Under the pieces are notes generated by a model. The model ran no database searches, had not been told where the DNA came from, and saw nothing but the letters and a program-made list of their open reading frames with translations. A program made the translations under genes and the position numbers. From Escherichia phage KEP3, in sequence record PP047753: a DNA stretch of 64,000 nucleotides. The stretch is one strand, 5' to 3'. Position 1 is the stretch's first letter. The number at the start of each line of letters is the position of its first letter. Shown here piece by piece: positions 41,710 through 61,650 of the stretch.

Positions 41710-43311
41710 TCAACGTCTAAGCCCCTCATATGGGTTTCCTCTCACTAAGTCTGTGTGAGCACCCATTGATGGTGGCTTGAATAATTTAACTTCGTTAAGA
41801 CTGTTGAAAGCATCACTGGTAGCATCCACTTGGTCATCTTTAGTTTTACCATCACCACAAAAACCTTCAAGTTCTTGAAAGTAAGCTTCGTTCCAACTGC
41901 CTCTCAAGACTTTTACAAGTCCAGCTTCAGAAGCAGCAGAAAACCCCGCAAATCGGGTAACTTTGTCTTTATTTGTTGGTTTAGCCCTTGCTCGATAACC
42001 TTTCTCGGCAAGTTTCCTGATGAGGGATGTTGCGTAGGATTTACCAGCAGCGCCTGGGTCTTGAGGGATAAAAATACCAGTTCGCTTACCGTCACTTTCA
42101 GCAGTCAAATTAATTTGTGTTTCGACTCCAGAGGGTCTATCTCTAAATCTTACTACATCAATGATATAATAGCAACCGTCTTTTTTAGATTTACCCATCT
42201 TAACACCTGCTGTCCAGTCTGGATTAGGGTTAATCTCAGATGGTAAAGTTGCTGCTAAGTCCCATGCTCTGACATCGAATACATCTTCTGGGAGTGAATC
42301 AACAATTTCACACCATTGTCTTTGCCAATAGTTTGAACCTTCTGCACGAGCCTTCCAGTTACCGAAACGAAGTCTTGCAACGTTTACAGGAGTGTTGTTT
42401 TCCAACTTACCACGGTATTTTGGTTCTAAGAAGTCAAGAATTGGGTTATCATCAATCGTACCAGAGATGAATGTATATGTTTGAGGAATCTCAAGAGGAA
42501 ACATTTCAAGAATCTTGTCTCTCTCCCAATCAGAAACCATAACACCATCATTCATTACATACCAACGAATACGACCACACTTTTCAGGGTCTGGGTAACC
42601 TTCTTCATCTAAGAATGGTTCTACCCAATCGTAAATAAAGTGGTCTCTGTCTGGGTTCATAGAAATCTTCATGTATGAATCACCTTCAGCCCCAGAACGT
42701 AGACGAGTCTGTAGGTATGAAATCTGTGAAGCAGAGAAGTGAGTACCTTCGTCAAAGTAAATAGCTGAATACTCAATACCCTGATGACCTTCAGCGTGCT
42801 TTTCAAGCTCTAGATAGGTAAACTTGATAGTTGCCCCAGAAGGGAATGTGATAGTCATCTTCTGCTCGTGAGGAACCCCACCAAACTTACCAAATAGTTT
42901 CTTTGCAGCAGGCCACAAACCACCTTGTAGCTGTGTTGTATTTCGACGGAAATATACAGCATTATAATTAGGGTCGTCAATAAACCTTAAAGAGTCCATT
43001 AACAATGCAGCAGTCTTACCAGCACCCGCAGCACCACCATAGAGGACCAAGTCAGCATTAGTATTTAAGAAGACCTCTTGAGAACCCGGCTGAGGGGCTA
43101 CATAGTTCTTATCAGTCATCAATTTGAAGATAAGTCTAACTTGGTCTGGTGTGTATCTTAATAAAGTCAGAATTTGAGTTGGAAGGAATTTAGAGGGGTC
43201 TTTACCGAATGATTTGATAATTTCTTTTACTTCATCAGAAAGCCCCAACTCTCCAGCTAGGACTTTCCTAACATCTTCCACTCGCTTCTGCTTAACAGCA
43301 TTTAAGTCCAT
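41710..43311 (-). CDS. terminase large subunit
   Basis: Walker A LYGGAAGAGKTAAL; start set to ATG 43311 with GGAGGT RBS. Confidence 0.85.
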   Translation of the reverse strand: MDLNAVKQKRVEDVRKVLAGELGLSDEVKEIIKSFGKDPSKFLPTQILTLLRYTPDQVRLIFKLMTDKNYVAPQPGSQEVFLNTNADLVLYGGAAGAGKTAALLMDSLRFIDDPNYNAVYFRRNTTQLQGGLWPAAKKLFGKFGGVPHEQKMTITFPSGATIKFTYLELEKHAEGHQGIEYSAIYFDEGTHFSASQISYLQTRLRSGAEGDSYMKISMNPDRDHFIYDWVEPFLDEEGYPDPEKCGRIRWYVMNDGVMVSDWERDKILEMFPLEIPQTYTFISGTIDDNPILDFLEPKYRGKLENNTPVNVARLRFGNWKARAEGSNYWQRQWCEIVDSLPEDVFDVRAWDLAATLPSEINPNPDWTAGVKMGKSKKDGCYYIIDVVRFRDRPSGVETQINLTAESDGKRTGIFIPQDPGAAGKSYATSLIRKLAEKGYRARAKPTNKDKVTRFAGFSAASEAGLVKVLRGSWNEAYFQELEGFCGDGKTKDDQVDATSDAFNSLNEVKLFKPPSMGAHTDLVRGNPYEGLRR

Positions 43312-43332
43312 TAAGCACCTCCGCAAATAGAA

Positions 43333-43533
43333 TTATTCAGAGTCTGTAGCAGTCTCTTCTTTCTTAACTTCGAACTTTGCATCAACAGCATCAAGAAGTG
43401 CATCCATAGATGCTTCTTTAATATCAATACCTGTTGCTACAGATAATCTGTCTGCAATTGCCATGATAGTATTCTGCATAAACTCTAGCTTCTTATTAGC
43501 TTCATAAAGTTCTTTATAAACGGTCTCGCTCAT
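43333..43533 (-). CDS. hypothetical protein
   Basis: ORF track; too small to call terminase small subunit confidently. Confidence 0.4.
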   Translation of the reverse strand: MSETVYKELYEANKKLEFMQNTIMAIADRLSVATGIDIKEASMDALLDAVDAKFEVKKEETATDSE

Positions 43534-59681: not shown

Positions 59682-59690
59682 AATATCTTA

Positions 59691-59722
59691 AGAGCCTCCT
59701 TAATTGGGGGCTTTTTAATTTT
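59691..59722 (+). terminator. rho-independent terminator ending plus-strand cluster
   Basis: AGCCTCC-TTAATT-GGGGGCT followed by TTTTTAATTTTT. Confidence 0.6.
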
Positions 59723-61269
59723 TATAAAATTTTATCGGTTGTCCCAACCTCTGGGTCACCATCATATGTGAATAAAATATCTACCCTTCTTAACAACCTT
59801 CTTAAGCTTACTCTCTATATAGTTATATAGTACTATATAGTATCTTAGTATCTATCTAGTGGTCTTAATAGCCCCTCTGTATAGCCCTTCTAAACACTCT
59901 TCTAACAAGCCTTCTTAACAACCTATACAATCACCTTAACCATCTCTCTACACCCTCTTAGAAGCTCCTATACACCTCTTAATCTCTAGGTTAGCTATGT
60001 TACCCTCTATAGGTGTTCACTAGGTATTACTAAGCCTCTATATAGACTGTTTTAACAAACTTAACAGGAATATCTTTACAGACCTTATCTCACAAGGTCT
60101 AACACGGTACTAACAAGGTATCTTATAAGCCTGTTTCTACCTGTATTTTTAAAAGACTGTCTAGGTAATTATTCAGAATTTTAAAATTTTTATAAAATAG
60201 GACTATCAAGTCATTTTTTTAGGGTCTTTGAAGGGACTGAAAAATATCTGTAGAAGATGTATATCTGCTTGGTAGCCCTTAACAGCTCCCTTACAAGTAC
60301 TTTGCAAAATTTTAAAATATCCTTAACAATCTCTTAACAACTCTCTCAAGCTCTTAACACCTCTTCAAAGGTCTTAACAGTTTCTTAACAGAACTAACAA
60401 GAACTTAACAGTTTTCTAACAAGTGCTGAATAGTCTTTACAGAGTCTTAACAGATAACTAACAAGAGCTAACAAGTTAATTTTTAAGAGTTATTTTGTTA
60501 AGATAATTAACAAGTTCCTAACAAGTGTTTAATCTTTTTAACAAGCTATTAACATGGTCACTATCTCTTTTCTTATCGTTCCCTTTCCCTCTTAGTGAAT
60601 CTCTAAACATACCTCTTAAAAACCCTCTATAGCCCCTTATAAGCCCTTTTAAGTCTCTTCCTAGTATTTACCCCTCAACTGTATGGATAGCTCTTTATAG
60701 GGCTTTACAGGAGCTTTTAAGGCTATGCCAAAGACTCTTACAAGGCTTTTACGTGGTCTTAACAGAGATTTAACAAGGGGCTAACAAGTCTCTAACAAGC
60801 ATAACTATGTAGGGATTGTTAAGAAATTGTTAAGAAAATGTTAAGGGGGCTAGCATTTACGTAACTTTATAGCCTCTTTCACGTAACTTTGAAGTAACTT
60901 TATAGCCCCTATAACATACTTTTAAGACACTAACAAGCCCTTTTTAGATATTCACAAGATAGCTAACGAGATAATAAAGCTTACACCCTTATAAGATTCT
61001 TTTAAGCCTCTAGGAAGCTTTATAAAGGGCTTTTAATGGTTAGGTAATGCAATCCCTTAAGTTAGGTTGATAAGGCTGTTATAGGGCTTTATAGAGCGTT
61101 TAAATGGGCCATCCCCTTTCTGGGGTTATTGGCTTTTATTTAAGTTGATTTGATAAGGGGCTATAGAGTAAGCTATAGAGTTATTGCTTTTAAGGTACGA
61201 GATAGATTCTATCGAATCAGTGGGATAGATTCTGGAAAGGGAAGGAAAGAGATTGTATAGAGATTTGAT
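59723..61269. repeat. 1.5 kb non-coding repeat-rich region (YTAACAR iterons, TATATAGT, GTTAAGAAA, GTAACTTT, GATAGATTCT repeats)
   Basis: No ORF of 60 aa or more; about 20 YTAACAR copies in 60290-60560. Confidence 0.8.
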
Positions 61270-61293
61270 AAGACGTAAAAAGCCCCATTTAAG
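61270..61293 (-). terminator. rho-independent terminator ending minus-strand small-gene series
   Basis: Minus-sense GCCCCTTAAATGGGGC + TTTTT; second GC hairpin at 61297-61312. Confidence 0.6.
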
Positions 61294-61336
61294 GGGCTGT
61301 AAAGGTATCTGGGGCTATTTAGCCCCGTTGCGTCGA

Positions 61337-61585: not shown

Positions 61586-61650
61586 TTTTGAATCTCCTAG
61601 TTTAAGGTATTTATCTAGTGGGAGGTAATAACCTCCCGTTGATTAGTAAT
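61586..61650 (-). promoter_or_regulatory. conserved upstream module copy 1
   Basis: Fills space between upstream stop and next ATG; GC hairpin + AGGAGA RBS. Confidence 0.6.

Follow-up and report, generated by a model that had tools for sequence, protein, structure and literature searches.

The concatemer junction of phage T7 carries a 160-bp terminal repeat, adjacent arrays of short repeats and pac signals. At cosB of phage lambda, R sites are combined with a site for the host protein IHF, which lambda uses there as a terminase accessory factor, and pacL and pacR of phage SPP1 consist of repeated boxes. Here we compare with these systems a gene-free, repeat-dense locus of Escherichia phage KEP3 (PP047753), a Felixounavirus (Felix O1-like myovirus). 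The locus occupies positions 59723-61269 of a 64-kb window, the window being the whole stretch of DNA that was analysed and to which all positions refer. Short terminal repeats had been inferred in the original Felix O1 paper (PMC3185647), and the direct terminal repeat (DTR) itself is already known for the genus and has been mapped experimentally: it measures 608 bp in UAB_Phi87, as established by Bal31 digestion and run-off sequencing (PMC4837284), 613 bp in Ro111lw (PhageTerm; PMC6454146) and 581 bp in Pr103Blw (PhageTerm; PMC8303462). The published accounts of Felix O1-like DTRs that we found state the length only and do not describe a phased array within them. New in the present work are this internal phased array, the quantised variation in DTR length and the conserved motifs at the cut sites.

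Over its full length, the segment 60271-60850 of the KEP3 window aligns with Pr103Blw 1-581, a stretch annotated as 'short direct terminal repeat region', and it also aligns to UAB_Phi87. Exact repeats at both ends of the record are present in D4 (581 bp), ZX4221 (591 bp), Ro111lw (613 bp) and NBEco005 (651 bp). Those of D4 and ZX4221 came to light on following up three unusually long records that seemed to end within 59723-61269, and the D4 termini have been reported from PhageTerm. The records of I14.1 and H12 both start with the DTR segment, and I14.1 contains a second match to it. Homologous DTR DNA occurs in Felix O1-like relatives at 84-95% identity and with the same synteny, and structurally the repeats of UAB_Phi87, Pr103Blw, Ro111lw and D4 show no difference from the KEP3 segment. 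The consulted account of UAB_Phi87 states how long the mapped DTR is but gives no coordinates for it; from synteny and a junction-based length of 614 bp we infer that it corresponds to 60271-60850. Among Kolesnikviruses, Hafnia phage SPARTY has an exact DTR of 439 bp at the syntenic site and Erwinia phage M7 one of 444 bp. The first-pass annotation of this DNA, which was made from the letters alone, had offered a terminal-repeat or packaging region as one meaning of the locus, besides a replication origin and dense regulator-binding sites, and had named a lack of termini here as the observation that would speak against it. The homology to DTRs mapped in relatives, with the same junctions, supports this option, and the PhageTerm and Bal31 results on the relatives answer the question of termini the opposite way.

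The junctions could be read at base level in the window and in the four records with exact end repeats. They are ...GTATATCTGCTT^GGTAGCCCTTAACA at the left boundary (A) and, on the other strand, ...TTACGTAAATGCTA^GCCCCCTTAACA at the right boundary (B), the caret marking the boundary. Over 25 nt on the outer and 35 nt on the inner side of each boundary, ZX4221 and Ro111lw agree with the window at every base, and D4 and NBEco005 are near-identical to it. GTATATCTGCTT is also kept at the matching cut position in SPARTY, and a core TTACG...TA^GCC at boundary B is common to KEP3 and SPARTY. A nick motif TGCTW^G at both boundaries was considered as well; it fits Felixounavirus but fails at boundary B of SPARTY and was dropped as a general rule. 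By homology with the mapped relatives, the ~580-bp sequence 60271-60850 is predicted to form both termini of the packaged linear DNA, as a short exact direct repeat of the T7 type. By the same homology the cuts should fall at GTATATCTGCTT^GGTAGCCC and GGGGGC^TAGCATTTACG, and 59723-60270 and 60851-61269 would be unique non-coding stretches just inside both genome ends. The segment 60271-60850 would then be the terminal repeat, present in one copy as in a concatemer or a collapsed assembly; only one copy is seen because the window comes from the interior of a collapsed or permuted assembly. Among the deposited Felixounavirus genomes there are many circularly permuted assemblies in which the DTR is collapsed and tiny hypothetical open reading frames (ORFs) are annotated at this place. 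The junction motifs GTATATCTGCTT^GG and GGGGGC^TAGC allow their true ends to be assigned from the sequence alone.

Two further observations concern copies and ends of records. In GU169904.1 (Staphylococcus phage SA1), positions 135884-136463 match the Felixounavirus terminal repeat at 90.9% identity, which suggests that this record is a chimeric or contaminated deposit. Three independent records or contigs (EF202P1, FSL SP-010 and FSL SP-012) start or stop at ~61630 (intergenic, 61586-61650), ~780 bp past the terminal repeat. These ends were considered as a clue to the terminus and rejected, as they are not a DTR boundary; it was the unusually long records that proved informative. The shared record end may be an assembly break at a repeated intergenic module of the early region.

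We consider it highly probable that the region is the junction of unit genomes in the Felixounavirus concatemer and that its phased sites form a protein-docking array which guides cutting and packaging. The DTR contains 24 TGTTA(A) cores, 20 of them on the minus strand and 4 on the plus strand, and most of them fall into a main array, a second cluster and a terminal triple of inverted copies (Table 1). The repeat unit is made up of TGTTAA and a variable stretch of five bases, and in the majority of copies the following TG is at +11. Over ~510 bp the 20 same-strand copies keep a period of 10.4 bp (Rayleigh R = 0.74), a degree of phasing that was matched by 0 of 2000 random placements. TGTTA sites elsewhere in the window are background sites and lack such a context. 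An equivalent terminal triple is present in SPARTY, again 6 bp from the end of the DTR, and boxes at a fixed distance from a cut, as in cosB and pac sites, are thus found in both Felixounavirus and Kolesnikvirus (triple 6 bp from boundary B).

The array is conserved in sequence as well as in spacing. Conservation was taken as identity to the window in a 20-genome alignment which included Mooglevirus. It was 0.94 in the left flank, the highest value in the locus, 0.90 in the repeat, 0.81 in the right flank and 0.79-0.90 in the flanking coding sequences (CDS), so that the non-coding region is at least as conserved as the neighbouring genes. Within the array, the heptamers are conserved at 0.95 versus 0.86 for the spacers (p = 7e-6), a difference which shows the phased heptamers to be under purifying selection. 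TGTTAA is the commonest hexamer of the DTR in Felixounavirus (17 copies), Mooglevirus (16) and Kolesnikvirus (17), and the TGTTAA unit with its 11-bp period is kept in the three genera though the DNA is otherwise unalignable. The arrays in the flanks are made of CTATATA/CTCTATA in Felixounavirus and Mooglevirus and of TTAGAAG in Kolesnikvirus. In SPARTY (positions 440-1005 of its locus L009) ~12-14 copies of YTTAGAAG lie beside the DTR, a place taken in Felixounavirus and Mooglevirus by CTNTATAG-type repeats. Such a switch of flank motif between genera suggests co-evolution with a phage protein.

The length of the DTR varies in steps. Among 19 distinct repeats, lengths of 569, 578-582, 591, 601-603, 612-614, 623, 633, 638 and 658 bp were found, and the insertions and deletions within the DTR, of 10, 11, 21-23, 26 or 48 bp, correspond to whole units. 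Such quantised lengths are compatible with a conserved phase, and the unit-length insertions and deletions argue against any coding reading.

The IMG/VR database was scanned for three CTTAACA at 11-bp spacing. The dense arrays in L014, L067 and L114 turned out to be coding 12-bp repeats and were set aside, and those in L083-L086 are a perfect tandem repeat of an unrelated uncultured phage and are uninformative on function. The latter phage, IMGVR_UViG_3300042863_002604 (81 kb), carries the 11-bp unit TGTTAAGAACT as perfect tandem arrays of 4 to 11 copies in at least four intergenic places (L083 743-793; L084 10316-10376; L085 8613-8733; L086 5018-5057). They share the heptamer and the period with the KEP3 DTR; the phage itself is dissimilar to the window and is without a close GenBank relative.

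Table 1. Features in and around 59723-61269 of the KEP3 window, with the large terminase subunit; boundaries A and B are the left and right ends of the DTR homolog
Feature	Position	Strand	Remarks
TerL	41710-43326	-	Terminase_6N/6C domains
Rho-independent terminator	59690-59715	+	10-pair stem followed by a T-run; ends the plus-strand gene block; same site annotated in AYO145A
Unique non-coding left flank	59723-60270		TATATAGT x3 (59816-59841), CTNTATAG-type repeats, scattered YTAACAR, 85% A+T stretch near 60180-60220
Outer junction motif GTATATCTGCTT	60259-60270	+	Just outside boundary A; identical in D4, ZX4221, Ro111lw and NBEco005
Homolog of the Felixounavirus short direct terminal repeat, 580 bp	60271-60850		94.8% identity to Pr103Blw 1-581
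Main array, 16 TGTTA(A) cores (CTTAACA on the plus strand)	60278-60560	-	Adjoins boundary A; phasing peak 10.3 bp, R = 0.84
Second cluster, four copies	60759-60799	-	Exact 11-bp spacing; helically in phase with the main array 200 bp away
Three inverted copies ATTGTTAAGAA, ATTGTTAAGAA, AATGTTAAGGG	60815-60848	+	Tandem Repeats Finder period 11, 95% matches; 6 bp from boundary B
Unique non-coding right flank	60851-61269		GTAACTTTRWAG x3 (60861-60905), CTNTATAG / GGGCTTTATAG in both orientations, GATAGATTCT x2 (61201, 61224)
Outer junction motif TAGCATTTACGTAA	60851-60864	+	Just outside boundary B; identical in the four DTR-resolved Felixounavirus records
Rho-independent terminator	61281-61298	-	Ends the minus-strand early-gene block; annotated in AYO145A

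From these features we infer that the array most likely serves in end cutting and packaging, as a recognition site wrapped by protein. The 24 helically phased TGTTA(A) cores would be docking sites for a protein that occupies one face of the helix by cooperative binding and wraps or stiffens the DTR. The resulting nucleoprotein complex could flag the junction for terminase, set the two staggered cuts 580 bp apart, one of them fixed 6 bp from the terminal triple, and let the DTR be duplicated at packaging. A second phage protein, one that evolves faster, would bind the palindrome-like repeats of the flanks (CTNTATAG; TTAGAAG in Kolesnikvirus). In outline, docking and cutting of this kind would resemble T7-type packaging and the repeated-box terminase sites lambda cosB and SPP1 pac.

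The likeness to a T7-type junction lies in the short exact terminal repeat, which must be duplicated at packaging, and in the short-repeat arrays at the junction, here the TGTTAA array in the DTR and CTNTATAG-type arrays in both flanks. Unlike in T7, the KEP3-type DTR is ~3.6 times longer and has its main array inside, not beside, the repeat; neither a phage RNA polymerase or its promoters nor a gp18-like small terminase is recognisable; and the genes at both ends of KEP3 point outward. Among the 149 annotated CDS of D4, likewise, there is no phage RNA polymerase and no small terminase. With lambda cosB and SPP1 pac the locus shares boxes phased at about one helical turn and a sequence-specific cut at a fixed distance from them, and in lambda cosB, IHF sets a precedent for a host accessory factor. 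In contrast to these sites, the DTR has 24 boxes rather than 3-4, spread over ~570 bp, and its cuts are staggered by 580 bp. In the literature, the terminase is placed with those of DTR packagers (PMC4837284). The locus bears on how a terminal repeat is located and duplicated by T7-type packagers in which no small terminase is recognisable, and it offers for this a very regular and directly testable cis element, with 24 helically phased sites, quantised lengths and genus-specific flank motifs. Which protein reads the array is a testable question raised by the region.

Several points weigh against a packaging junction with a docking array. The virion termini of KEP3 are deduced from six relatives whose records have the repeat at both ends, and the junction-based length of the UAB_Phi87 repeat, 614 bp, differs from the published 608 bp. 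Slippage in replication alone also yields unit-length insertions and deletions, and the quantised lengths are thus no proof of selection for phase. The array may act in injection, end protection or replication instead of packaging. Searches of Pfam and PHROGs gave no recognisable small terminase or other candidate for the binding protein, the 66-aa and 244-aa products upstream of TerL belonging to families of unknown function; among the nine products encoded beside the region, none has a Pfam domain, and their PHROG matches are all to families of unknown function. The 66-aa product (43333-43533, minus strand; phrog_4397) is encoded directly upstream of TerL and is a positional candidate for the small terminase subunit. 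The only annotated phage DNA-binding protein is a 99-aa Cro/C1-type helix-turn-helix protein (HTH_3), a class that would probably suit the palindrome-like flank motif more than the 11-bp direct repeats.

The array might alternatively be read by a host protein. In this case the Ounavirinae terminal repeat would be a super-array of sites recruiting a two-component response regulator of the host from the OmpR/PhoB family, either ArcA-P, which matches the core best, or another member such as PmrA, an explanation that we regard as unlikely. The purposes proposed for such recruitment are those of a terminase accessory factor, an end cap, an oxygen or redox sensor, or a decoy titrating the regulator. 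If it were true, a redox or envelope signal of the host would be put to use at the ends of the phage genome, and the regulator could assemble the packaging complex, cap the ends against RecBCD or be titrated off the host chromosome as genomes accumulate. With a host response regulator as the partner, a virulent phage would also be linking the maturation of its genome, or the protection of its ends, to the physiology of the host in a novel manner. The genus encodes both an aerobic (NrdAB-type) and an anaerobic (NrdDG-type) ribonucleotide reductase (D4 record 60533-68043, L142); the two types equip it for oxic and anoxic hosts and form a background to the redox-regulator idea.

The minimal ArcA site is ATGTTAAAAA-N-ATGTTAAAAA with 11-bp spacing, and ArcA sites have 2-5 repeats at 11 or 22 bp (PMC4173790, PMC3798270). 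For scoring, an 18-bp ArcA matrix was rebuilt from the 115 boxes of the published Table S3 (r = 0.994 versus the published Ri) and used with a cutoff of 15 bits. Nine of the 12 sites of at least 15 bits in the 64-kb window fall within the 580-bp DTR, and the boxes of the terminal triple score 22.6 and 22.8 bits, the training maximum being 21.4. All sites of at least 15 bits lie inside the DTR in SPARTY, M7, Michonne, Sf16 and Felix O1 (loci of ~2.6-3 kb around the DTR each), as do five of eight in the first 45 kb of D4. TGTTA pairs at 11-bp spacing that reach 15 bits are present in the KEP3 DTR and in four other phages, covering three genera. The multi-direct-repeat sites of ArcA-P resemble the DTR in the TGTTA(A) core, the 11-bp centre-to-centre spacing, the occasional gaps of 20-22 bp and scores of 15-22.8 bits. 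They are unlike it in number (24 repeats in the DTR versus 2-5), and the DTR is without a promoter and has a conserved G after TGTTAA. The motif is invariant in phages of E. coli, Salmonella, Citrobacter, Erwinia and Hafnia, and ArcA is common to these hosts. An OmpR/PhoB-type domain was not detected in the six-frame ORFs of a full relative genome (best E about 1, which is noise), so a phage-encoded binder of that fold was not seen; the search used a three-sequence profile and phmmer, with ArcA, PhoB and OmpR as queries.

The match to ArcA is nevertheless a post hoc one, as ArcA was picked once the motif was known. In a control, any two TGTTAA cores 11 bp apart averaged 18 bits. The non-core positions score -0.8 to -2.3, versus -1.9 +/- 4 in random sequence, and the non-core preferences of ArcA are not followed. 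The 'super-consensus' argument for ArcA is weakened by these two controls. A G follows TGTTAA in 13 of 17 phage copies and in 8% of ArcA boxes, and the opposite strand, CTTAAC-N5-CTTAAC, is at family level equally like the PmrA box YTTAAK (PMC10927774). No promoter for such a regulator to act on is nearby, promoter-like sites being unenriched and both gene blocks terminating here. Genetic data point in both directions. In the consulted parts of a Salmonella study by randomly barcoded transposon sequencing (RB-TnSeq), disruption of arcB led to FelixO1 resistance (PMC8744999); the arcB effect is also seen there with the unrelated phage Aji_GE and is ascribed by the authors to RpoS, and in those parts arcA is not flagged for FelixO1 under the aerobic conditions used and is listed only in the Br60 sheet. 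Apart from the arcB entry, no link to ArcA was found in the literature on Felix O1-like phages. Apparently, the ArcA match is a family-level resemblance in architecture, and the role of a host factor would be a minority possibility.

We give a low probability to an iteron replication origin, at which a phage initiator would bind the phased repeats and melt the adjacent A+T-rich stretch, the ends being secondary or doubling as origins. The first-pass annotation had included an origin among its options, and the array does share with plasmid and phage iteron origins the phased direct repeats (period 10.4 bp, R = 0.74), which are strongly conserved, and the neighbourhood of an A+T-rich stretch (85% A+T at 60180-60220, 50-90 bp outside boundary A). 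T7, too, has secondary origins near its ends. The array nevertheless coincides exactly with the DTR, with the terminal triple at a constant distance of 6 bp from the cut. None of the neighbouring genes resembles an initiator, and the replication genes of D4 (primase/helicase, polymerase) are >25 kb away; the region contains one DnaA box and no strict IHF site, that is, no enrichment of either. The GC skew, which had been proposed as a check, does change its sign near the region, but this coincides with the switch in gene orientation (convergent transcription) and is not independent evidence. The origin option was thus left without specific support, in contrast to the terminal repeat.

A role in DNA entry, with the repeats as an injection pause or anchor signal or as an end-protection site bound right after ejection, appears very unlikely. 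The precedent is T5, whose left terminal repeat has an untranslated repeat region with 8 DnaA boxes, proposed as an injection stop signal (bioRxiv 10.1101/866236). Like the KEP3 repeat, the T5 region is a conserved, gene-free and repeat-dense part of a terminal repeat and is proposed to bind a host DNA-binding protein; unlike it, it belongs to a terminal repeat of ~10 kb rather than 0.58 kb, and DnaA boxes are unenriched in the KEP3 region. The DTR would be the first or last DNA to enter, and the ends carry no early promoters because both gene blocks run outward and are sealed by terminators. A protein bound 6 bp from a blunt end could, moreover, hinder the loading of RecBCD. Two-step injection is unreported in the literature found on Felix O1-like phages, no A1/A2-like genes were identified, and the conserved outer junction motifs favour cutting. 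Entry and packaging roles are inseparable on sequence alone. Control of transcription, by clustered -35-like hexamers or operators for the flanking genes or a non-coding RNA, is hardly credible: TTAACA matches the -35 hexamer TTGACA at 5/6 positions, a few weak promoter-like combinations were called within the array and the phage encodes the Cro/C1-type protein, but a sigma-70 scan gave promoter-like sites not above shuffles (10 versus 7.5 +/- 3.1), the neighbouring gene blocks end rather than start at the region, and it has no Rfam family (two sub-threshold chance matches only) and no conserved ORF.

When 1.8 kb around 59723-61269 was compared with phage records, 256 matched, all of them Felix O1-like myoviruses of Escherichia, Salmonella, Shigella and Citrobacter; 188 matched over at least 80% of the length, at 80-93% identity. 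The locus sits between homologs of Felix01p050 and Felix01p049. It had been described as one 1.5-kb block free of ORFs of 60 aa or more on either strand and enclosed by a plus- and a minus-strand terminator. The two terminators were confirmed, each closing one of the two neighbouring gene blocks, which are transcribed outward to the genome ends (Table 1). The longest ORF fully contained in 59723-61269 has 36 aa, and no ORF of at least 40 aa is positionally conserved across 20 relatives; a protein-coding reading in related phages, which had been named as a reason to abandon the non-coding view, was thus looked for in these genomes and not seen. The block is gene-free and repeat-dense as claimed, but it is not a single unit: it has three parts, the unique left flank, the DTR and the unique right flank, each with different repeat families. 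In the relatives the locus is annotated in various ways, being left empty, given only the two terminators in AYO145A, marked with small repeat regions in fjerdesal or filled with tiny hypothetical ORFs in LMP34 and UAB_Phi87. As a separate observation, GATC is absent from the whole 64-kb window, where 186 +/- 13 copies are expected from dinucleotide-preserving shuffles, which is a complete avoidance of the Dam/MboI-type site.

The counts of the repeat families were obtained for the region and its parts. YTAACAR occurs 28 times in 59723-61269 (25 on the plus strand, 3 on the minus strand), at 18.1 per kb versus 1.23 per kb in the remaining window, a 15-fold difference. Its spacings are mostly 11 bp, others being 9-10, 20, 31, 39 or 44 bp. 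About 20 copies had been claimed for 60290-60560; only 13 strict copies, with 16 TAACA cores, are present there, and the figure fits 60271-60850 instead, which has 18 copies on the plus strand and 3 on the minus strand. TTAACA is found 112 times in the whole window, versus 73 +/- 8 expected, a number reached in 0 of 100 shuffles, and this window-wide excess stems from the region 59723-61269. The CTNTATAG family, seen in part by the first-pass annotation, has a density of 9.7 per kb in the region versus 0.21 per kb elsewhere and lies mainly in the flanks.

The minor repeats reported earlier were largely recovered. Three copies of TATATAGT start at 59816, 59824 and 59834, and both copies of GATAGATTCT were located, at 61201 and 61224. 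A triplet of GTTAAGAAA is exact in two copies, at 60818 and 60829, but the third, at 60840, reads GTTAAGGGG. The three copies of GTAACTTT(A/G)(T/A)AG are present at 60861, 60883 and 60894, about 20 bp to the left of where they had been placed. In addition, a perfect 16-nt inverted repeat, CTCTATAGCCCCTTAT / ATAAGGGGCTATAGAG, is formed by 60625-60640 and 61153-61168, its arms 512 bp apart. It straddles boundary B, one arm being inside the DTR and its partner in the right flank.

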